Of a stretch of 64,000 bases of DNA, positions 10,836-23,618 are shown piece by piece (position 1 is the stretch's first letter; each line of letters starts with the position of its first letter). The position numbers and the translations under genes are program-made. This stretch comes from Bacteroidia bacterium. GTDB lineage: Bacteria; Bacteroidota; Bacteroidia; CAIKAF01. A model generated the notes under the pieces. The model was not told the DNA's origin and did not search any database. It saw only the letters and a list, made by a program, of their open reading frames with translations. The stretch spans positions 23,776-87,775 of the forward strand of contig JAUHWY010000005.1 in assembly GCA_030427255.1 (NCBI GenBank), in the 5' to 3' direction.

Positions 10836-13800
10836 ATGAGATTTCTGATTGCCGCTTTACTTCTTCCTTTGGTTACCCTTTATGGCCAAAGCAGCTATAC
10901 CTTTACCAACTGTGGAGCATCGGGTCGTTTTGGGCCGAGTCAAACCAATGTAAACAACAGCTATACCTCGGGAAACTCCTTGCACAATCAGGTAAGTATT
11001 AACACTCAAGGGTTTCAGGAATGGACGGTGCCCACAACGGGCACGTATCGCATTCAAGCCTTTGGAGCGCAAGGTGGGGAAGGTGCAAACTCTCCAAGCT
11101 CCAGAGGAGGAGGTGGGCCCGGTGGCTTAGGTGCGCGCGTAGAAGGAGATTTTTCCTTAAATGCCGGTGATGTATTGGTGGTTGTGGTAGGACAAGAAGG
11201 TCAGGATGGTATTGGAAACGGCAATTGCGGTGGTGGCGGTGGCGGCGGCTCTTTTGTTTGGCTAAAGCAAAACAACACACTCTTACTTGCCGCAGGCGGC
11301 GGCGGAGGAGGCCCCGGTAACTCATGGCAAGCCAATACTACCATTCATGGCACAAGCTCTACTTCCGGGCAAACACCTCCGGCGGCCGTAAGTTATGTGA
11401 GTGGTCAAGGAGGTACTAATGGTCAAGGCGGTGGAGCCGGCAGCCAAGGAGGGAATAGCAATTGCGGTTATTGTGGAGCCGGAGGCGCCGGCTGGCTGAG
11501 CAATGGTGCAGCAGGTGGTCAATATGGCGACAATTTTGGAAGAACCAGAACCTTCGGCTTTATTGGCGGCAGAGCCAACAACAACCTTACCCATGGAGGT
11601 TTTGGTGGTGGTGCTGCCACAGGCGATGATGGAAGAAGCGATTACAGCCATGGAAACGCCGGTGGAGGCGGATACTCCGGTGGCGGAGGGACAGGTTACC
11701 CCTACTTTGGAGGTGGCGGAGGATCCTTCAACAGCGGAGCCAACACGAACGATGCAGGAGCCGTGCGGAGTGGGCATGGGCAGGTACTCATAACGGAACA
11801 GGTGTGTCAAGGAATTCCCAATGCAGGTACCGTTGATGTGAATGGGCAAGACACCTTGTTCTTTTGCAGTCCAAGTCAAGTAACCTTATCTGTGCAAGGC
11901 GCAGCATCAGGCTCGGGGATTTCTTATCAATGGCAAAGCAGCGGAGGCCCCTTTGGCCCTTGGCAAAATATACCGGGCGCTACCAATTTGACCCATGTTG
12001 CCAATGTGCAAGGTTTTGGAAGCTTTTTTCGCTTGCGGGTTAGTTGCTCCGGTTCGGGTCAATTTGCCTTTAGCAATCGAATTGCCGCCTTGGGAGACCA
12101 AACTCCTCCCACCATTTCGGCGCCGGCAGACCTTTTGCAACAACCTACAGACTCAGGAAACTGCAGTCGCGCCAATCTAAATTTAGGGCAGGCCAATGCT
12201 AACGACAATTGCCAAGTTGCTTCCGTTTCCAATAATGCCCCGGCATCCTTTCCTTTAGGAATTACTCAGGTGGTATGGACCGTTACGGATGGTTTTGGTT
12301 TAACGGCCACTGATACCCAAACAGTGGAGATTTTAGACCTTGAAGCTCCAATAATGGCTCAGGCCTCTCCATTAAATCTGCAAGCAGACCCCGGAGGCTG
12401 CAGCGCAACCAATACCGGACTTACCCCGCCCTCTACCACAGAAAACTGTCAGTTGGCTTCCGTAAACAACAATGCGCCTGCAAGCTTTCCGGCCGGTGTT
12501 ACGCAAGTGGAGTGGGTTGCCTTAGATGCGGCGGGAAATGCAGACACCATTTATCAAACGGTGGTGGTGACGGATGGAGAAGCCCCCCAAATGGGACCGG
12601 CGCCCACTGACACCTTATTCACGGATCCGGGCCAATGCACGGCCAGTCAGTTTAGCTTAAATAGCCCAAGTGCCACAGACAACTGTGGAGCGCTTAGCCT
12701 TACCAATAATGCTCCCTCCATTTTGGCAGAAGGAGTTCACGCAATTGTTTGGACTGCTACCGACAGCTCCGGAAACAGCAGTCAAACCACCCAATTGGTG
12801 GTGGTAATAGACAATGAAGCGCCACAATTGCAAGCGCCCAACGATATTTCAATAGCAGCAGACCCTGGGGCATGTACGGCTTCCAACGTAAACTTGGGCC
12901 AAGCCCTAACTTCGGACAATTGCGGTATTGGGCAAGTAGTGAATAATGCGCCCGTTCAGTTTGCTTTAGGGCAAACCATGGTGGTTTGGACCTTAGCGGA
13001 TCAATCCGGAAATGTGGTTACCGATACCCAATACGTTACCGTTAGTGACCAAAGCCCCCCTAGCCTAAGTGCCCCTCAAGCAGTACAATTCACTGTAGAC
13101 TCTGCCAGTTGCCTACTAAGTCAACCGGCATTAGGCCAAGCCGTGGCAAACGATGCATGCAGTCCTGTTGCAATAAGCAATGACGCACAAGGCAGCTATG
13201 GCCCGGGAGTGTACACCATAACCTGGACGGCCAGCGACACCAGCGGAAATACGACAACTGCACAACAAACCCTTACGGTTACGGATAATTTTGCCCCAAT
13301 AATTAATTTTTGTGCTCCGGATACCTTCGTTTGCTTTGGTGTAGAAACAACTTTGCCTTTACCTTCCGGGACAGACAATTGCAGTTCTGCTTTGAGCACG
13401 GAACAGGTTAGTGGACCCATAAATGGCACCATTTTTCCTATGGGTCAGCATCAATTGGTGTTTGCATTAAAAGATGCTGCACAAAATGCTGCCTACTGCA
13501 CTACCATGGTAGATGTAAGGCCATTGCCCAACACCTCTACCAACCAGCAGGGAACGGTATTGTCCGCAGTACAAAGTGGTGCGCTATACCAATGGCTTGA
13601 CTGCCTGGATAATTACAATGCCCTTGCGGGAGAGACCGCACAACAGTATACCCCATCATCTAGCGGAAGCTATGCTGTCCGGGTTGACTTAAATGGGTGT
13701 CCGGACACCAGCTTATGTTTGGAAGTAAACCTAACTGGGCTGTTTGAAGCGAATACTCAAGATTTTAAAATTTGGCCTGTTCCCGCCACGAAGGTCTTGA

Positions 13801-13985
13801 ATATTGAAGTGATGGAAGCAGGTCTTTTTAAGGTTTTTGATTTGAGGGGCGCCTTGGTTATGGAGCAGAAACTTCAAAAGGGAACCCAGCAAATATCCTT
13901 GCAAGGTCCAGCACCGGGGGTATATCTTATCCGCTTTACCGGAAGCGAGACCTCTCATCAGCAACGTTTGGTTATTCAACCATAG
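10836..13985 (+). CDS. large secreted protein: N-terminal glycine-rich (ALK-like Gly_rich) domain + ~7 HYR repeats + T9SS type-A C-terminal sorting domain
   Basis: 1049 aa with signal peptide. N-terminal domain TVPTTGTYRIQAFGAQGG...VVVVGQEG...LLLAAGGGGGG...GHGQVLI is paralogous to the C-terminal domains of the proteins at 22134, 45818, 47106 and 48698. Repeated DNC/TDxxGN HYR-like modules. C-terminal KIWPVPATKVLNIEV...GVYLIRF sorting domain. Confidence 0.8.
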   Translation: MRFLIAALLLPLVTLYGQSSYTFTNCGASGRFGPSQTNVNNSYTSGNSLHNQVSINTQGFQEWTVPTTGTYRIQAFGAQGGEGANSPSSRGGGGPGGLGARVEGDFSLNAGDVLVVVVGQEGQDGIGNGNCGGGGGGGSFVWLKQNNTLLLAAGGGGGGPGNSWQANTTIHGTSSTSGQTPPAAVSYVSGQGGTNGQGGGAGSQGGNSNCGYCGAGGAGWLSNGAAGGQYGDNFGRTRTFGFIGGRANNNLTHGGFGGGAATGDDGRSDYSHGNAGGGGYSGGGGTGYPYFGGGGGSFNSGANTNDAGAVRSGHGQVLITEQVCQGIPNAGTVDVNGQDTLFFCSPSQVTLSVQGAASGSGISYQWQSSGGPFGPWQNIPGATNLTHVANVQGFGSFFRLRVSCSGSGQFAFSNRIAALGDQTPPTISAPADLLQQPTDSGNCSRANLNLGQANANDNCQVASVSNNAPASFPLGITQVVWTVTDGFGLTATDTQTVEILDLEAPIMAQASPLNLQADPGGCSATNTGLTPPSTTENCQLASVNNNAPASFPAGVTQVEWVALDAAGNADTIYQTVVVTDGEAPQMGPAPTDTLFTDPGQCTASQFSLNSPSATDNCGALSLTNNAPSILAEGVHAIVWTATDSSGNSSQTTQLVVVIDNEAPQLQAPNDISIAADPGACTASNVNLGQALTSDNCGIGQVVNNAPVQFALGQTMVVWTLADQSGNVVTDTQYVTVSDQSPPSLSAPQAVQFTVDSASCLLSQPALGQAVANDACSPVAISNDAQGSYGPGVYTITWTASDTSGNTTTAQQTLTVTDNFAPIINFCAPDTFVCFGVETTLPLPSGTDNCSSALSTEQVSGPINGTIFPMGQHQLVFALKDAAQNAAYCTTMVDVRPLPNTSTNQQGTVLSAVQSGALYQWLDCLDNYNALAGETAQQYTPSSSGSYAVRVDLNGCPDTSLCLEVNLTGLFEANTQDFKIWPVPATKVLNIEVMEAGLFKVFDLRGALVMEQKLQKGTQQISLQGPAPGVYLIRFTGSETSHQQRLVIQP

Positions 13986-14415
13986 GGGTCAAAAATATAG
14001 CCTTGGGAATCTGTTGAGGAGCTTCCAATGGGCAGGTATTTCGTAAAGGCACAATGCTTAGCGACAAAAGCCTGAGGCCTTAGCGCATGCTTAGCTTAGA
14101 TATATCGGTTTTACTTATTGGCCTTTTCAATTGGCCATATGCCACGGTTTTAACCAAAGGAGACCGTTGACGGGTTGCGTTTTCAAGGCGAATTAAGGCG
14201 CGTACAAATCGAAAGGCCGCTGACGCTTCGGTCAGGACAGGCCGGAGTTTACCATATGTAAATGAGCACCTTGAGATTTGGACGCAACGCCCAGACGCCG
14301 CCAGAATAGCAATTCGTCAACGATCTCCAAAGATAGAAAGTAATAAGCCCTTTAGGGTTAAGTGTTACACCAAAGCGAGACTGATGGTTCGACGCTATTC
14401 CGGTAGTATTTTGGT

Positions 14416-14511
14416 CCTGACGCTTCGGTCAGGATTAGAAACCTGACGCTTCGGTCAGGATTAGAAACCTGACGCTTCGGTCAGGATTAGAAACCTGACG
14501 CTTCGGTCAGA
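14416..14511. repeat. tandem array of four 26-bp units, each a perfect hairpin (CCTGAC-GCTTCG-GTCAGG) plus ATTAGAAA spacer
   Basis: Three identical units plus a truncated fourth are seen directly. A solitary related hairpin lies at 14215-14236. Sits in a ~900-bp gene-free region between convergent genes. Confidence 0.9.
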
Positions 14512-14799
14512 AGCCAAGGCTTGAAAACACAAGGCATAAACAGCCTTAAAGCGTAATTCTGACATAGTTTCACTAGAAAAGCAACGCATCAACGGTCTGG
14601 TAATAATAATCGCTGGTCTGGTGCAATCGCTTAGAAAAGGCTGCAGGGCCGGGTATTGATTACGGATGGGCCAATGCAAAAACCGAAAGGCGGTGGATAG
14701 GTTTTGGCAGGGATCAAGAATAGGCCAAGAGAAATTTTATTTTTATTAGCTCTCTAAGCTAGCTATTTCCATTTGATGGAATCCATTCCATAAAAAAGA

Positions 14800-14841
14800 A
14801 AAACATGTACACCTGTGGAATAGTAGGCATACATGTTTTTT
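14800..14841. terminator. bidirectional rho-independent terminator
   Basis: Stem aaaacatgta/tacatgtttt with T runs on both strands (ttttttc on plus, ttcttttttat on minus). Lies 56 bp downstream of the minus-strand 81-aa gene. Confidence 0.6.
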
Positions 14842-14896
14842 CTAGAACCCAAGTTAGAATGTAGAAAGGAAGATTTTGATTAATTGTAAAACAAAT

Positions 14897-15142
14897 TTAA
14901 TGAACAAATTCTAAAGTTTCCATTATTTGGCTGAAATTTTTTCGTGCTTGTTCCCACCAAAGCCATTGGGCCATTTTTTCATCGGACAAATCGATCTCCG
15001 TGGAAAAAAAACGGTGTTCGATAATAGCACTCACTTCATCTAGGAGTTCGTCCATAGATTCGGTGTTTTGAGTTAGCAAAGCCAATTCATCGGAGGGGCT
15101 CATTGAGCCGTCTAAAAAACTATAGGTAGGTACTGCTTGCAC
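14897..15142 (-). CDS. small acidic hypothetical protein, 81 aa
   Basis: ORF with no recognisable domains. Last gene of the minus-strand peptide array. Followed by a terminator. Confidence 0.4.
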   Translation of the reverse strand: MQAVPTYSFLDGSMSPSDELALLTQNTESMDELLDEVSAIIEHRFFSTEIDLSDEKMAQWLWWEQARKNFSQIMETLEFVH

Positions 15143-15379
15143 GATTCCAATGTTTAATGTATTTTAGTTCTCTGATTTATTGGTGGCAGTCCTTCCTTTG
15201 TTTGCTCATCCCTACGTTTCCCCAAAATGAGTTAGGAAGGTCTGCCATTTTTTATGTCTTTTATTTGTACGCCTACTTTTGGCGTTGAGTTAGAAGGGAA
15301 CAATTGATGGTTATTGACGAACGATTAAGAAGCCTAGGCAAATAAAAGAACGGTCTTGGCAGAGAATGAATTGAATCGG

Positions 15380-15547
15380 TTAGTGCTGTAATTCGTCGAC
15401 GATTATTTGCACCTGAGCTTCCTCTCCGGAGCGTATGGCATCGTTAGAACGTTGCTCCAAGGCACGGTATTCGTCCGGAGACATGGTTGGCTTAGCTGCG
15501 ATCAGCAAGTTCAACATCAAGGCGACTAAAATCCAAAAGCTGTCCAT
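15380..15547 (-). CDS. small membrane/secreted peptide paralogue 1, 55 aa (MDSFWILVALMLNLLIAAKPTMSPDEYRALEQRSNDAIRSGEEAQVQIIVDELQH)
   Basis: Translated by hand (shorter than the ORF-track cut-off). N-terminal hydrophobic segment. C-terminal tail conserved with the two neighbouring paralogues. Confidence 0.6.
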   Translation of the reverse strand: MDSFWILVALMLNLLIAAKPTMSPDEYRALEQRSNDAIRSGEEAQVQIIVDELQH

Positions 15548-15570
15548 GGTATGGTATTTTTAAAAGTTGG

Positions 15571-15738
15571 TTAATGCTGTAATTCGTCTACAATGATTTG
15601 CACCTGGGCTTCCTCTCCGGAGCGTATGGCATCGTTAGAACGCTGTTGTAGCGAGCGATACTCGTCGGGAGACATGGTTGGCTTGGCTGCGATTAGCAAG
15701 TTCAACATCAAGGCTACTAGAATCCAAAAGCTGTCCAT
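15571..15738 (-). CDS. small membrane/secreted peptide paralogue 2, 55 aa (MDSFWILVALMLNLLIAAKPTMSPDEYRSLQQRSNDAIRSGEEAQVQIIVDELQH)
   Basis: Translated by hand. About 90% identical to paralogue 1, including its upstream CTTTTAAAA(A)TAATACC region. Confidence 0.6.
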   Translation of the reverse strand: MDSFWILVALMLNLLIAAKPTMSPDEYRSLQQRSNDAIRSGEEAQVQIIVDELQH

Positions 15739-15758
15739 GAGGTATTATTTTAAAAGGA

Positions 15759-15965
15759 TTAGTGTTGAAGTTCGTCTACAATAATTTCCAACGCAACGGC
15801 GTCTTTTGCAGCAATGGCATGAGAGGCCTCAATCCTAGTAGATTGGAGACTATCGTTTCCGGATGTGCTTTGGCTGCCCGCAAGTAAATTGGACACCAAT
15901 ACGATTAATAGCGTTAAGGTTTGCATTGCGATTTGTTGAATTATTATTGATAAATTCTTGAGCAA
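15759..15965 (-). CDS. small membrane/secreted peptide paralogue 3, 68 aa (possibly 55 aa from internal M at 15926)
   Basis: ORF track. Hydrophobic N-terminus. Diverged middle. C-terminal ...AVALEIIVDELQH shares the IIVDELQH tail with paralogues 1 and 2. Confidence 0.55.
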   Translation of the reverse strand: MLKNLSIIIQQIAMQTLTLLIVLVSNLLAGSQSTSGNDSLQSTRIEASHAIAAKDAVALEIIVDELQH

Positions 15966-16038
15966 AGTTGAACCAAACTCAAATCTGCCGCAAAACCACT
16001 TTTTAAAAATTTGACATTACGAGAAAAAGGCCCTAAAT

Positions 16039-17631
16039 TTGACATCTAGATTTGTCCAAAAACGGGTAGTTATGAAAAAAAATAGCCCTGATGCTTTAAG
16101 ACCGCTTGTAAAAAGCATGTCTCCTCAAGAACAGGAGGTTGCCAAGCAAGTGATTGTTGGCTTTAACCGAAAGTTCGGTGATTACGAGCCAAAAACTTTA
16201 AAGCTTTTTCAATTTATTTCTGACAATACGGACCTAGGAAATTTTGATGATGAGCAGGTGAAAAACCTGCTTTTCCCCGAAATGGACGAAGCAACTTTCG
16301 GAAAACTGACATCACGTTTAAGGGAAAAAATCTTCGAATCGCTCATTTTGGACGTAAATCTTGACCGAAAAGGCACCTATCAGCCCTCTTGGTTGGTGCG
16401 TCAAAAGGCAAGAAAGAATCTCATTACCGCCGAAATTCTCAGTATCCGAAATCAACGCGATAAAGCCGAAAAGCTTATTCGAAAAACCATACGAGAGTGC
16501 CAAAAGCATGAGCTATACGATCTTCTTATTGGTCTCAATCATATTTCGTTCATCAATACCTGCAACACCAAAGGAGGCGAATACACTTCGCAAAACTTTG
16601 AAGACTTTCAATCGTATCTTGAAAAAGAACGACTTAAAAAAACCGCTGAAATGCATATGTACAAATATGCATTTTATGGTGTCAATAAGTCTTCGGCAAA
16701 GCCAAAACCCAAAGATGTTCTAAAGGATATTCAAAAAATAGAACAGGCTTTGGAACATGGACCTGAAGTCCCTTCTGCCAAGTATTTTCTCCTACAGCTT
16801 AAAACCGTGTATTGGGAATTAAAAGGTAATTTTAATAACCAAGTGCGCTTCGCCCGTCAATTGCGCGACCTTTTTGCCCAACATCCCCACCTTGGCTCGG
16901 ACATTAGAAATATTAATGCCTACTTACAAGAGTTTACAGCCCTCCTAAATCTAAACGAGCACAAAGAAGCGCTTGTAGCAGTACGAGAGGCACAAAAACT
17001 TGCTGTACCCGGCACATCAAGCTATTTCGAAATCACCAAAAACCAAGTGTATCCGCTTATTCATTTAGGTAGGTTGCACGAAGCCCGTAGAATAGTAGAA
17101 GACTTACTTGACGACGAACGAGTGCAAGGTCTAATGCAAGAGAAATTGCGCTATTTACTCTGCGTTATTCTTCGCGAAAACGGACAATACGGCTTGGTAA
17201 GCAGAACTCTTTTGGAGCTTAATGAGCTGCCTTCCGCTCAGCGCAATGGATGGAACGTAGGCGTGCGCTTCATGGAAATCCAAAACCGCTTGGAAAATGA
17301 GCTGTTCGATTTGGCCGAAACCCAAATCCAAAACCTCAAACGTTTTATGGAACGCCATAGCACTGCTATGAAAGACCGGAAACGCGATGTGATTATCCTT
17401 CGTATCCTGCTTCAACTGTCCAAGCTTGATTTCAACTTTGTCGAATTCATGAGCAAACATGCACCACTTGTAGATTTGCTTCAAGATGCTAGACCCGATT
17501 ACCGTTGGGATCCATTCGGCGCAGAAACCATTCCTTTTGATCAATGGCTACGCAAAATGGCAGGCATGCCAATGCTCAGTCCAAATTCAGATGAGAACTC
17601 TGAAAACGAACTGGTCTACATCGAAAAATAA
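16039..17631 (+). CDS. large all-helical hypothetical protein (TPR-like?), divergent from the peptide array
   Basis: 530 aa, no signal peptide, no recognisable catalytic motifs. Alternative start at 16072 (MKKNS). Confidence 0.5.
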   Translation: MTSRFVQKRVVMKKNSPDALRPLVKSMSPQEQEVAKQVIVGFNRKFGDYEPKTLKLFQFISDNTDLGNFDDEQVKNLLFPEMDEATFGKLTSRLREKIFESLILDVNLDRKGTYQPSWLVRQKARKNLITAEILSIRNQRDKAEKLIRKTIRECQKHELYDLLIGLNHISFINTCNTKGGEYTSQNFEDFQSYLEKERLKKTAEMHMYKYAFYGVNKSSAKPKPKDVLKDIQKIEQALEHGPEVPSAKYFLLQLKTVYWELKGNFNNQVRFARQLRDLFAQHPHLGSDIRNINAYLQEFTALLNLNEHKEALVAVREAQKLAVPGTSSYFEITKNQVYPLIHLGRLHEARRIVEDLLDDERVQGLMQEKLRYLLCVILRENGQYGLVSRTLLELNELPSAQRNGWNVGVRFMEIQNRLENELFDLAETQIQNLKRFMERHSTAMKDRKRDVIILRILLQLSKLDFNFVEFMSKHAPLVDLLQDARPDYRWDPFGAETIPFDQWLRKMAGMPMLSPNSDENSENELVYIEK

Positions 17632-17650: not shown

Positions 17651-17678
17651 AAGGCCCTTTAACTAAGGGCCTTTTTTA
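17651..17678. terminator. bidirectional terminator between the 530-aa gene and purF
   Basis: Stem aaggccct/agggcctt followed by T run. Overlaps the purF stop codon. Confidence 0.6.
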
Positions 17679-19538
17679 TTGGTAACTCCTTGAGTCGCTC
17701 CCTTCCATGAAGTGCACAAAAGCCCGGTTTACAAATCGGTTCCCCCCTTGCGTAGGATAATTTCCGCTGAAGTACCAGTCTCCACTATGCTCCGGACAGG
17801 CCAAATGCAAATGCGCTACCCGTTGAAAAACAAAACGGAGTGGACAATCCAGCTCCTCCGGTTTCAACATTTCGGCCATCTCTTCCAAAATATTGGCGTC
17901 AGGAACGGCTGCATATAAGGCTTGTACGTAATTCTTTTCTCCGTCACGATCTTCTGCAATAGCAGCAAGCACCTCTTCGTAAAGTGTTTCCATCAACCCA
18001 ACCTTTCCCTGCTTAACCAAGCAAGAAACCGCTGCCCTAAAGGCTGCTAGGTCGTTGAGTCGGGCCATATCAATGCCGTAGCAATCAGGATAACGAATCT
18101 GTGGAGCCGAAGACACCACCACTAAGGCTTTGGGACGCAGCCGACTTAGCATTTTTAATATGGACTCTTTTAAGGTAGTGCCACGTACAATGCTATCGTC
18201 CAAGACCACCAAGTTGTCTTCCCCGGCTCGAATGCTCCCATAAGTAATGTCGTACACATGCTGTACCATATCGCTGCGGTGCGCATCATTGGTAATAAAG
18301 GTTCTAGCCTTTACGTCCTTTACGGCCACCTTCTCCACTCTAGGCTTTTGCCTAAACAACTGCTCTACAGCCTGCGCATCCCATAGGGCATTTTTGCTTA
18401 AAGCTTCCAAGGCCTTTTTCTCCATGTACTCCTCCACCCCTTTTATCAAACCATAAAAGGCCAATTCAGCCGTGTTCGGAATAAAAGAAAATACGGTATG
18501 CTCCAGATCTCCCTCAATGGCCTCCAACACATCTTGAGTTAACAATGCCCCAAGGGCTTTTCGTTCGTGATAAATATCTTTATCGGTGCCCCGACTAAAG
18601 TAAATGCGTTCAAAAGAACAACTCTTTTTAGGCTGTGGAGCGAGCACTTCTACCCGCCGGGATGCTTTTCCGGGGCTAAGCAAAAGACCTTCCCCAGGAT
18701 TCAACTCCTGCACTTCATCTATGGGTGCATCAAAAACAGTTTGAATTACCGCACGCTCCGAGGCTACCACTACTAAGTGCTGGTTTTCATACATCCATGC
18801 AGGCCGAATACCGGCCGGGTCACGTACCACAAAGGCATGACCTTGACCATTAAAACCGCCCATCACATAGCCTCCATCAAACTTTTTAAAGGCTTGGCGC
18901 AGCACAGGAGTCAAATCCAACACTTCTTCCATGGCCTTTGAAATGGCAGCTTTATCGTTCTCTCCAGCTCCTTTCAACGCCTCATAACAACGCTCCACTT
19001 CCTCATCTAAAAAATGGCCAATGCGCTCCATCACGGTAACTGTATCTGCCATTTGTTTGGGGTGCTGTCCCAACTCTAACAATTGCTGAAAAAGCTCAGG
19101 GGTATTGGTTAAATTAAAGTTACCCGCCACAGCAAGCATACGCGATGGCCAGTTGTTGTCACGCAAAAATGGGTGGCAGGCTTCCACGCCATAGCGCCCA
19201 AAAGTACCGTAGCGCACATGGCCCAAAAACAATTGCCCGTCGAAGGGTTTTACTAAACCCGATCCTTTCTCTTGCGCTTGTTCAATTTGCCGAAAAAGGT
19301 CTAAAATCGGTTGCCTGGCATCACTTCTTACCCGGTCCAAACGCGGGTAGCCTGGGGGAGCATTGAGGTTTAAACTGGCCAAACCGGCGCCGTCTTGGCC
19401 CCGGTTGTGCATTTTCTCCAACAAAAGATACATTTTGCGCAAGCCGAACTTACTCCCAAACTCTTGTTCTACCTGATTTGGAGGGGCTTTAAGCTGCAGA
19501 AGTGCTATCCCGCATTCGTGTTTTAGCGCATCGCTCAT
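17676..19538 (-). CDS. purF: amidophosphoribosyltransferase (long Bacteroidota form)
   Basis: 620 aa. N-terminal HECGIA class-II amidotransferase nucleophile. PRPP-binding VVLDDSIVRGTT. Confidence 0.8.
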   Translation of the reverse strand: MSDALKHECGIALLQLKAPPNQVEQEFGSKFGLRKMYLLLEKMHNRGQDGAGLASLNLNAPPGYPRLDRVRSDARQPILDLFRQIEQAQEKGSGLVKPFDGQLFLGHVRYGTFGRYGVEACHPFLRDNNWPSRMLAVAGNFNLTNTPELFQQLLELGQHPKQMADTVTVMERIGHFLDEEVERCYEALKGAGENDKAAISKAMEEVLDLTPVLRQAFKKFDGGYVMGGFNGQGHAFVVRDPAGIRPAWMYENQHLVVVASERAVIQTVFDAPIDEVQELNPGEGLLLSPGKASRRVEVLAPQPKKSCSFERIYFSRGTDKDIYHERKALGALLTQDVLEAIEGDLEHTVFSFIPNTAELAFYGLIKGVEEYMEKKALEALSKNALWDAQAVEQLFRQKPRVEKVAVKDVKARTFITNDAHRSDMVQHVYDITYGSIRAGEDNLVVLDDSIVRGTTLKESILKMLSRLRPKALVVVSSAPQIRYPDCYGIDMARLNDLAAFRAAVSCLVKQGKVGLMETLYEEVLAAIAEDRDGEKNYVQALYAAVPDANILEEMAEMLKPEELDCPLRFVFQRVAHLHLACPEHSGDWYFSGNYPTQGGNRFVNRAFVHFMEGSDSRSYQ

Positions 19539-22133: not shown

Positions 22134-23618
22134 ATGCAAGTGCGCTTTTTCTTTTTGGTTCTTCTTTTTCCTTTTTTGGCGGCTCAGGCTCAATCGGTGG
22201 GCGTAAATACGCAAAACCCGGACCCGTCGGCTGCTTTAGAAGTGCAGTCTACCCAGCAGGGCTTTTTGCCGCCGCGCATGACTTCAAGCCAACGCGACAA
22301 TATTTCGAATCCGGCCACAGGGCTCATGATTTATAATACCGACAACGGTTGCCTTAACTTGTTTAACGGCAACTTGTGGGAGCAGCTTTGTCCTACGTGT
22401 ATTGCGCCGGTGGTGCAAATTCAAAACGTTCCGGATACCTTGTGCGCCGGTCAAAACCTGAGCTTCAATTTGCCGTCTATTTCCGGGGTTAGCTACCATT
22501 GGAGCGGCCCCAACGGTTTTAGTTCCAATTTGCCCAACCCCACGGTTAGCAGCGTTAGCGCCCAAGACGCTGGTGCCTATGCTGTGTTTGCCGTTCAAAA
22601 CAACTGTACTTCTGCCGTGGTTACGCATAACTTAACCGTGCTGAACCAAGCCGATGCCAATTTTACAGTGAACCCAAGCACTCCTTCGGTGAATGTGGCG
22701 GCCGCCTTTACGGCCCAAGCCGGCATGGGCAGCTACGCCTGGACTTTTCAGAGCGGAACACCCGGATCGTCCATTCAGCAGAACCCTCAAGTTACCTGGT
22801 CTCAAGCGGGTACCTACAACGTGCAATTGATTGTAGATAACGGCAATTGCAGCGATACGGTGATTCAACAAGTTACGGTGGTGACTTGCCCTCCTCAGCC
22901 TCAGGGCCAAAGCGTTACCTTCAATTATACGGGTGGGGTTCAGTCCTTTACGGTTCCTGCTTGTGTCAATTATATTGATGTCGACGCTTCGGGTGCACAG
23001 GGCTTTGCAAACGGAAGTCCAAGTTTTGGCCGTGGTGGCCGCGTTCAAGCCAGGCTTACGGTTACGCCGGGAGAGGTTTTGTCCATCTACGTAGGAGGTC
23101 AAGGAACCTCCACCTCCGGAGGTTACAACGGTGGTGGAAATGTGGGATCCGGAGGTAATTACGGCGGTGGCGGCGGAGCTTCGGACATTCGGCGCAATGG
23201 TACCACCTTAAACGATAGAATTATTGTAGCCGGTGGCGGCGGTGGTACGGGTTCCAATTGCGGCACCAACTCTGCTCCGGGCGGTCATGGAGGTGGCTTA
23301 ACCGGACAAAGCGGTTGTTTGTACAGCTGCAGCAGCTGCCAGTATACCGGCGGTGGCGGGACACAATCATCCGGTGGAGTAGCCGGCCCTACCAGCCATA
23401 GCGCATGTGGAAACAACAGCAACGGCAGCTTTGGTCAAGGTGGCTCCAATACCGGAAACTCAGGCACCGGCGGCGGTGGCGGCTGGTATGGCGGAGGTTC
23501 AGGTTGTTATGAAGGTGCCGGAGGAGGTAGTTCTTACGTCACCAGCAATGGCTCAAGCAATATCACTCATACGCAAGGACATCGTCCGGGCCATGGTCAA
23601 ATCATTATCAGTTATTGA
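22134..23618 (+). CDS. secreted protein: conserved N-terminal module + PKD-like domain + C-terminal glycine-rich (ALK-like Gly_rich) domain
   Basis: 494 aa with signal peptide. N-terminal module ...ALEVQSTQQGFLPPRMTSSQRDNISNPATGLMIYNTD.GC. C-terminal FTVPACVNYIDVDASGAQG...IYVGGQG...IIVAGGGGG...GHGQIIISY. Confidence 0.75.
   Translation: MQVRFFFLVLLFPFLAAQAQSVGVNTQNPDPSAALEVQSTQQGFLPPRMTSSQRDNISNPATGLMIYNTDNGCLNLFNGNLWEQLCPTCIAPVVQIQNVPDTLCAGQNLSFNLPSISGVSYHWSGPNGFSSNLPNPTVSSVSAQDAGAYAVFAVQNNCTSAVVTHNLTVLNQADANFTVNPSTPSVNVAAAFTAQAGMGSYAWTFQSGTPGSSIQQNPQVTWSQAGTYNVQLIVDNGNCSDTVIQQVTVVTCPPQPQGQSVTFNYTGGVQSFTVPACVNYIDVDASGAQGFANGSPSFGRGGRVQARLTVTPGEVLSIYVGGQGTSTSGGYNGGGNVGSGGNYGGGGGASDIRRNGTTLNDRIIVAGGGGGTGSNCGTNSAPGGHGGGLTGQSGCLYSCSSCQYTGGGGTQSSGGVAGPTSHSACGNNSNGSFGQGGSNTGNSGTGGGGGWYGGGSGCYEGAGGGSSYVTSNGSSNITHTQGHRPGHGQIIISY

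Follow-up and report, generated by a model that had tools for sequence, protein, structure and literature searches.

The window analysed here, a 64,000-nucleotide stretch of DNA from a Bacteroidia bacterium (assembly GCA_030427255.1, contig JAUHWY010000005.1, positions 23,776 to 87,775), contains between its positions 14,897 and 17,631 an array of three small peptide genes, a divergently oriented gene for a large helical protein and a gene for a small acidic protein. The corresponding open reading frames (ORFs), all of which had been described in an original prediction made from the DNA letters, were recovered, and together they form a conserved, unannotated cassette which occurs in uncultured freshwater Bacteroidota. 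Its genes are located as follows (coordinates refer to the window; the clades are described further below).

16072-17631, plus strand: gene of the large protein, 519 amino acids (aa) from ATG 16072 (530 aa from TTG 16039), candidate peptide receptor
15380-15547, minus strand: peptide gene 1, type A, 55 aa, C-terminus IIVDELQH, orthologues P0001-P0003
15571-15738, minus strand: peptide gene 2, type A, 55 aa, C-terminus IIVDELQH
15759-15926, minus strand: peptide gene 3, type B, 55 aa, MQTLTLLIVLVSNLLAGSQSTSGNDSLQSTRIEASHAIAAKDAVALEIIVDELQH, identical protein P0004, orthologues P0005 and P0006
14897-15142, minus strand: gene of the 81-aa acidic protein, motifs ...EV..I..R(F/Y)F... and W(L/M).WE..R..F, homologues located after the peptide array in clades A, B and C

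The three peptides had been predicted to be 55-68 aa in length, which holds for the lower end of this range. Two of them are 55 aa long, and for the third ORF, first read as 15759-15965, an in-frame ATG at 15926 yields a product of 55 aa as well, which is as long as its orthologues and can be aligned with copies 1 and 2 without gaps. Based on the orthologues and on this alignment, we consider ATG 15926 to be the start and the 68-aa form from a TTG to be an over-extension. Copies 1 and 2 fall below the identity of about 90% initially estimated, with 87% over the repeat unit of 191 nt, 88% over the coding sequence and 96% at the protein level. The differences between them, 20 in 168 bases, fall mostly on codon position 3 (16 of 20) and never on position 2; among the 17 codons changed, 15 are synonymous and two non-synonymous. 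This concentration in synonymous sites demonstrates that the small ORFs of the window are coding and subject to purifying selection. The same synonymous-biased divergence, amounting to 12%, speaks against the duplication being recent, as had been proposed. Likewise, complete units of gene plus promoter do not appear to have been duplicated: the intergenic spacers of the three-gene array are only 20-23 nt in length and the sole conserved promoter-like box is located upstream of the first gene, so that the array probably represents a single operon. Overall, copy 3 shares no more than 33% identity with copies 1 and 2, yet it terminates in the same octapeptide, IIVDELQH, in which five of the eight codons differ synonymously between copies 1 and 3.

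The peptides share a layout that consists of an uncharged hydrophobic N-terminus, a variable middle region of 20-25 residues and the C-terminal motif. By inspection, small residues (AGS, AA or GTS) come after a hydrophobic run of 9-17 residues. The most conserved part is the acidic tail and not the hydrophobic segment, and the predicted products are acidic throughout, with net charges of -2 to -8. The peptides are very rare (six clusters in 5.8 billion proteins). Routine annotation had been expected to miss them; public records of metagenome-assembled genomes (MAGs) do in fact already call the peptides, albeit as unnamed proteins. The 81-aa protein is represented by only 3 clusters in 5.8 billion proteins and is, as predicted, acidic, with an isoelectric point of 4.1 and 16 aspartate and glutamate as opposed to four lysine and arginine residues.

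For the large protein, initially read as 530 aa, the most likely start according to the sequence is ATG 16072, resulting in 519 aa, since TTG 16039 forms part of a conserved -7 promoter box and the alignment of most homologues begins at the methionine encoded at 16072. As there is no N-terminal hydrophobic segment or signal sequence, the protein is predicted to be cytoplasmic. An AlphaFold2 model based on nine sequences (predicted local distance difference test score, pLDDT, 82; predicted template modelling score 0.71) shows a purely helical-repeat protein without a catalytic fold, in which a five-helix N-terminal domain (residues 1-92, pLDDT 81) is followed by a disordered linker and a superhelix resembling tetratricopeptide repeats (TPR; about residues 105-500). 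This model and the matches of TPR Pfam models, obtained for up to 17 of 50 sampled family members, agree with the earlier description as an all-helical, TPR-like protein. The large protein contains a near-invariant GWN(I/V)G(I/V)R motif. The window protein itself gave nothing above threshold against Pfam and NCBIfam (TPR_MalT at E 0.21 and a faint TPR_14). A HMMER search of 1.84 billion representatives assigned 1,726 sequences to the family at E<=1e-3, 1,024 at E<=1e-10 and 366 at E<=1e-30, while the close relatives amount to eight clusters. Members are about 500-530 aa in length and align end to end; those sampled are metagenomic and are named, at most, 'hypothetical protein'.

Related loci were retrieved from genomes and metagenomes by means of the large protein, and the 22 with readable upstream DNA were counted. 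All loci are MAGs of Bacteroidota/Flavobacteriales or metagenome contigs; freshwater lakes of the Erken, La Plata and Tanganyika type are among the sources of such MAGs. The three-part cassette, i.e. the peptide array, the divergent protein of about 520 aa and the downstream acidic protein of 65-81 aa, is present in 22/22 loci, which together encode 25 distinct peptides in arrays of 1-6 genes. The suspected co-occurrence of the peptides with the large helical protein and the 81-aa protein was therefore found in every related locus with enough sequence, and the arrangement persists down to 27-38% identity of the large protein. The genes flanking the cassette vary by clade (cobS/cobT/DUF6580, MlaEF or a purF-like gene), indicating that the conserved unit is restricted to the three gene types.

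Three clades can be distinguished. Clade A consists of the window plus a MAG of Flavobacteriales that has six peptide genes, and the tails read IIVDELQH. In clade B, the large protein is 42-44% identical and the peptides, 47-48 aa in length, end in I(I/V)VDELQN. In clade C, where the large protein shows 36-38% identity, peptides of 52-53 aa take the form MSTLILLVSMLFNSGTSF-DIIVDEIAH-RSGK-DIIVDEIAH-YAGS-DIIVDEIAH, or variants thereof with IIVDEIGH. The motif that forms the tail in clades A and B thus occurs three times per clade C precursor, separated by four-residue spacers, and there is little else beyond the hydrophobic segment. Within single precursors, the three DIIVDEIAH copies are encoded by different synonymous codons. 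These three copies, the key result of the analysis, mark the core motif as the selected unit, a stretch of 8-9 residues, [D]I[IV]VDE[LI][QAG][HN], carried by precursors that can be multi-core. The core variants LQH, LQN, IAH, IGH, VNF and LMD follow the clades of the large protein.

Where the large protein is more distantly related (26-27% identity), it is still accompanied by divergent peptides with related tails (...QIVIEEVNF, ...QIVYDDLMD and ...RIVYEDIWVG...), and in 2/3 of these loci a small acidic gene follows the peptide gene; likely analogues of the 81-aa protein are encoded in L024 (65 aa) and L033 (73 aa). Among the next-closest relatives outside the core clades, 3/5 have a neighbouring small peptide gene. 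Farther out in the family, the sample (L022 and L026-L033) is too small to establish a family-wide association with peptides; some of its members have a plausible hydrophobic-headed small ORF nearby and others do not. In L027 (504-3639), two tandem TPR-family paralogues enclose a 67-aa hydrophobic-headed ORF, and in L026 (320-847) a distant TPR-family member is located close to a TIR-domain gene; these odd contexts may hint at other roles in the wider TPR family.

Arrays also differ in copy number. Locus L007 (GCA_018401695.1, 6001-6932) harbors six peptide genes, one of type B and five of type A, four of the latter being 100% identical across the whole 191-nt unit. A comparison of these six genes with the three in the window suggests that the number of peptide copies evolves quickly, and assemblies of such arrays may be collapsed or expanded. 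Three MAG records with the cassette (L009, L010 and L011), one of which encodes a large protein 88% identical to that of the window, are titled 'uncultured Candidatus Competibacteraceae', a gammaproteobacterial family; this is probably a placeholder or erroneous taxonomy.

Outside the coding regions, the following features were identified.

15927-16071, no strand assigned: divergent promoter region, blocks conserved across clades A, B and C (alignment, consensus scan)
16010-16016 and 16034-16041, plus strand: putative TPR-gene promoter, -33 box TTTGACA and -7 box TAAATTTG (TAnnTTTG), conserved across clades
15970-15963, minus strand: -7-like box CAACTTTG of the peptide operon, conserved, 37 nt before the first peptide ATG
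15186-15252, no strand assigned: structured element between the last peptide gene and the 81-aa gene, 12-bp GC-rich stem and 36-nt loop (UUGGGGAAACGUAGGGAUGAG on the peptide-sense strand)
14799-14840, both strands: A-run/hairpin/T-run downstream of the 81-aa gene, an inverted repeat, terminator-like in both directions
14841-14855, plus strand: 15-nt motif TCTAGAACCCAAGTT directly after the terminator-like hairpin

The promoter consensus of Bacteroidota consists of a -33 element TTTG and a -7 element TAnnTTTG. The structured element is present once in every complete locus of clades A-C, with a loop of 29-58 nt and conserved sequence, and compensatory changes in its stem between clades reveal covariation. 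Folding z-scores are significant in both orientations, ranging from -2.0 to -5.1 for the sense and from -4.9 to -6.1 for the antisense orientation. On the peptide-sense strand, an A-run precedes the element, while a conserved U-run follows it on the opposite strand only. An Rfam search of 14000-16200 returned no credible match, only a chance snoRNA at E 0.83. The element could belong to the 5'-untranslated region of the 81-aa gene, or an antisense small RNA could have its 3' end here.

The bidirectional terminator expected after the 81-aa gene corresponds to the A-run/hairpin/T-run at 14799-14840. This hairpin and the 15-nt motif are kept in the window, L007, L001-L006, L010-11, L024/25 and L033. 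Clades A and B and the relatives with 27% identity share an identical form of the motif, whereas clade C lacks it; where present, it always adjoins the A-run/hairpin/T-run at the distal cassette end. Across loci with proteins of 27-44% identity, its conservation exceeds that of the coding sequences. In L024 and L033, the motif is located 330-590 nt from the acidic-protein gene and adjoins an ElbB/DJ-1-like gene.

With regard to function, we tentatively favor a model, to which we would give somewhat less than an even chance, in which the locus is a self-contained peptide-sensing circuit. By analogy, it would work like an RRNPP system without being a member of that family. A peptide ligand with a TPR receptor appears to be the best explanation for the combination of a multi-copy, multi-core precursor, a dedicated TPR protein, tails that track the clades and the lack of a linked enzyme or transporter. 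According to this model, a single promoter would drive an operon of 1-6 precursor genes, and each precursor would consist of a short uncharged hydrophobic N-terminus for export or membrane targeting, a variable pro-region and one or three acidic cores. The core of 8-9 residues would be freed by proteolysis and would be bound by the cytoplasmic TPR protein of the divergent gene, in its concave groove; the N-terminal helical domain of this protein would then change its contact with a target. This target might be DNA, at the promoters of the cassette itself, or the co-conserved small acidic protein, in which case control would be of the Rap-like protein-protein type. Most simply, and again by analogy, the small acidic protein would be the partner or the output of the TPR protein. 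Peptide export, processing, re-entry, binding to the TPR protein, DNA binding and the output of the circuit are inferred parts of this model.

None of the five cassette proteins gave a meaningful match to a known family in searches of Pfam, NCBIfam, PADLOC and PDB sequences, as had been anticipated. The closest parallels are found among RRNPP systems. The model of the large protein suggests a TPR fold of Rap/NprR-like size and shape; as Foldseek did not single out the RRNPP receptors, we do not claim homology. As in Rap-Phr, a small propeptide gene adjoins the gene of a cytoplasmic TPR protein, the TPR protein has a small N-terminal helical domain without a clear helix-turn-helix (HTH), and the active unit of Phr is a short peptide from the C-terminal region, some Phr precursors being tandem as well (PMC11343458). 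Multi-pheromone propeptides and tandem duplicated pheromones are documented for Rap-Phr (PMC11343458). In contrast, there is no detectable sequence homology, and the cassette protein is longer (519 aa versus about 375 aa for Rap). The genes of the cassette are divergent instead of co-directional and the peptide arrays reach six copies. The cassette also has a third conserved gene (acidic, 65-81 aa), a peptide N-terminus without basic residues, and a diderm host among the Bacteroidota. Rap proteins act on target proteins through their N-terminal helical domain, and the small helical N-terminal domain of the cassette protein, together with the lack of a clear HTH, suggests control by protein-protein contact. 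The proposed combination of a TPR receptor with a neighboring propeptide, of which the C-terminal 5-8 residues are the signal, would likewise be shared with NprR-NprX, PlcR-PapR and AimR-AimP-AimX. The small gene that comes after the peptide array finds a parallel in aimX, the small output gene following AimR-AimP. However, gene order and orientation differ, and NprR, PlcR and AimR carry an HTH of the Xre type, whereas the N-terminal domain of the cassette protein is devoid of an HTH sequence signature: no HTH Pfam signal was obtained across 47 family members, and structural resemblance to sigma region 4 and LuxR domains is weak.

Current definitions of RRNPP systems include the cassette only in part. 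RRNPP_detector calls receptors of 250-500 aa with a hidden Markov model match to RRNPP peptide-binding TPR domains (PMC10075063), and the large protein, at 519 aa, falls outside this definition. An adjacent propeptide gene of 10-100 aa, as in RRNPP systems, does occur: arrays of 47-55-aa genes are located directly upstream and divergent in 22/22 core-clade loci. RRNPP systems have been described only in Firmicutes and their mobile elements (PMC10075063). While those hosts rely on re-import by Opp, all cassette loci are from Bacteroidota/Flavobacteriales MAGs or metagenome contigs, with neighbors that include proteins with tails for the type IX secretion system (T9SS). The cassette may have arisen independently, and the family for which it stands could be much larger.

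Several observations weigh against a peptide-sensing circuit. By sequence, the large protein resembles neither the RRNPP receptors nor the Pfam models for RRNPP. A Foldseek search of its model against the PDB gave no match at E<1e-3, with generic TPR proteins first and the best RRNPP receptor at rank 11; in the comparison of the large protein, generic TPR proteins were close behind (CNOT10 17.2, LGN 16.9). Similarly, a sequence profile search of the PDB returned generic or designed TPRs only, and no Rap, NprR, PlcR or AimR. No lysine or arginine precedes the hydrophobic run in any peptide, and type A begins with MD-; such N-termini are atypical for Sec signal peptides, so that the evidence for export of the peptides is ambiguous. 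In the loci examined, no gene for an oligopeptide importer (Opp) is linked to the cassette, and we are aware of no precedent in Bacteroidota for the re-import of peptides across two membranes. The distant family members L022, L029 and L032 have no obvious neighboring peptide. A further weak point is the effector domain of the TPR protein, which is putative.

An extracellular role of the peptides, which would be secreted and act outside the cell with the TPR protein serving only as a regulator or chaperone, appears unlikely to us. They might bind metals or minerals, act as surface-active or matrix peptides, or be interspecies effectors, and the multiplicity of genes and cores might then reflect dose. 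This would fit the high and variable copy number of 1-6 genes, including the four DNA-identical ones among the six of L007, and the presence of D, E and H (or N) in every core; moreover, the length of the hydrophobic region (10-16 residues) and the small residues that follow resemble signal peptides. However, a bulk or physicochemical function would leave unexplained why the order of eight residues is nearly invariant and why the last three are clade-specific. The strict linkage to a cytoplasmic TPR protein and a small cytoplasmic acidic protein over 27-90% identity would not be accounted for either.

The peptides might alternatively stay in the inner membrane with the N-terminus outside and the C-terminus inside, and the tail would dock the TPR protein and, through it, the acidic protein. 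We regard such docking, which would resemble the binding of EEVD-type tails of Hsp70/Hsp90 by TPR clamp domains, as rather improbable. The lack of a basic n-region, the acidic residue 2 of type A and the lysine or arginine that follows the hydrophobic run in several peptide types would, by the positive-inside rule, favor this topology, and the TPR protein is predicted to reside on the appropriate side. As in Hop and CHIP with Hsp70/Hsp90, a TPR protein is combined with a short hydrophobic-acidic motif at or near the C-terminus (IIVDELQH, in one variant IVIEEVNF); the CHIP TPR is among the weak profile matches of the large protein, and three internal copies of the motif could recruit three TPR molecules. 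On the other hand, a transmembrane helix would be expected to be longer than the hydrophobic runs of 9-17 residues, the region beyond them is strongly acidic in clade C (net -6 to -8), which disfavors a cytoplasmic C-terminus, and the variable stretch of 20-25 residues between anchor and motif looks like a pro-region. In further contrast to TPR clamp systems, the motif partners are dedicated hydrophobic-headed peptides of 47-62 aa, the motif can be internal and repeated, and there is no chaperone.

That the small genes encode multi-core precursors of ribosomally synthesized and post-translationally modified peptides (RiPPs), with a core that the large protein, or enzymes whose genes are located elsewhere, would modify, is in our view highly unlikely. 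Several RiPP classes typically feature precursor genes in tandem and more than one core per precursor, and both conserved partner proteins are without known function. In addition, several short cores with spacers per precursor and tandem precursor genes are reminiscent of the yeast alpha-factor and of RiPPs of the cyanobactin type. However, unlike in these systems, neither linked maturation enzymes nor an obvious conserved cleavage motif flanking the cores was found. A RiPP cluster comprises a precursor and at least one conserved modifying enzyme, and here the array has no conserved partners other than the TPR and the small acidic protein. Near the array, the loci examined share no recognizable modifying enzyme, RiPP recognition element, protease or transporter. 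The helical-repeat model of the large protein provides no catalytic fold, and the N-terminus of the peptides is hydrophobic and signal-like and does not resemble a hydrophilic leader.

We give hardly any credence to the idea that the peptides are type I toxin-like membrane peptides curbed by an antisense or small RNA that the cassette itself encodes: such toxins also form tandem arrays of hydrophobic ORFs of less than 60 aa, and a conserved hairpin with a U-run does occur on the strand opposite the peptides, but conservation is highest in the hydrophilic acidic tail, the clade C peptides consist mostly of three acidic repeats, the products are acidic overall, and the antisense-oriented hairpin adjoins the 81-aa gene and does not cover the peptide genes. 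The acidity of all products likewise led us to reject a bacteriocin or small toxin, initially considered for this locus, as the principal interpretation. Control of a downstream gene by a leader peptide or ribosome arrest was dismissed as well, as the last stop codon and the hairpin are about 6 to 135 nt apart, depending on the clade, and as several tandem genes carry the motif, which also recurs internally.

In the surroundings of the cassette, a gene for a glutamine amidotransferase (purF-like, GATase_6/7; 17676-19538, minus strand) is oriented tail-to-tail with the TPR gene. The product is 560-633 aa in length across loci, and the same arrangement occurs across widely diverged loci (L004, L006, L007 and L031), with overlapping genes in L004 and L006; this neighbor may reflect plain synteny. 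Between the MlaE/ABC genes and the cassette, a gene at 10836-13985 (plus strand) codes for a glycine-rich protein of 1049 aa that combines HYR domains with a C-terminal sorting domain for the T9SS. As the gene is missing at the matching position of L007, it represents an insertion/deletion difference. A PKD protein with a glycine-rich domain of the ALK/LTK type is encoded at 22134-23618 (plus strand). A perfect tandem repeat at 14416-14510, located between the 1049-aa gene and the cassette, comprises 3.7 copies of the 26-nt unit CCTGACGCTTCGGTCAGGATTAGAAA, each with a 6-bp hairpin, and a degenerate copy resides at 14219-14236. All five matches to the unit in the 64-kb window cluster there (0 expected by chance), and related copies in L007 are suggested by ORF translations alone.

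To our knowledge, the use of cytoplasmic TPR receptors in peptide signaling between cells counts as a hallmark of Firmicutes, their phages and plasmids, and we know of no established peptide pheromone system in Bacteroidota. It is possible, if doubtful, that the cassette is the founding intracellular TPR-receptor/peptide-pheromone system of the Gram-negative Bacteroidota, having evolved independently of the Firmicute RRNPP systems, and that it represents a family of TPR proteins of about 510 aa (>1,000 clusters at 50% identity), many of them with a peptide gene of their own. If so, the same logic of peptide signaling would have arisen in diderm bacteria, the social behavior of abundant uncultured freshwater lineages resembling Flavobacteriales would be opened to study, and a function would be provided for a large unannotated protein family. 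As the predicted ligand is a defined, unmodified octapeptide which can be synthesized cheaply, the signaling hypothesis is directly testable, and IIVDELQH, IVVDELQN, IIVDEIAH and IIVDEIGH provide natural variants of predicted specificity. Even without signaling, the triple-core precursors and the strict linkage of the three genes define a new family of small proteins with a specific TPR partner.

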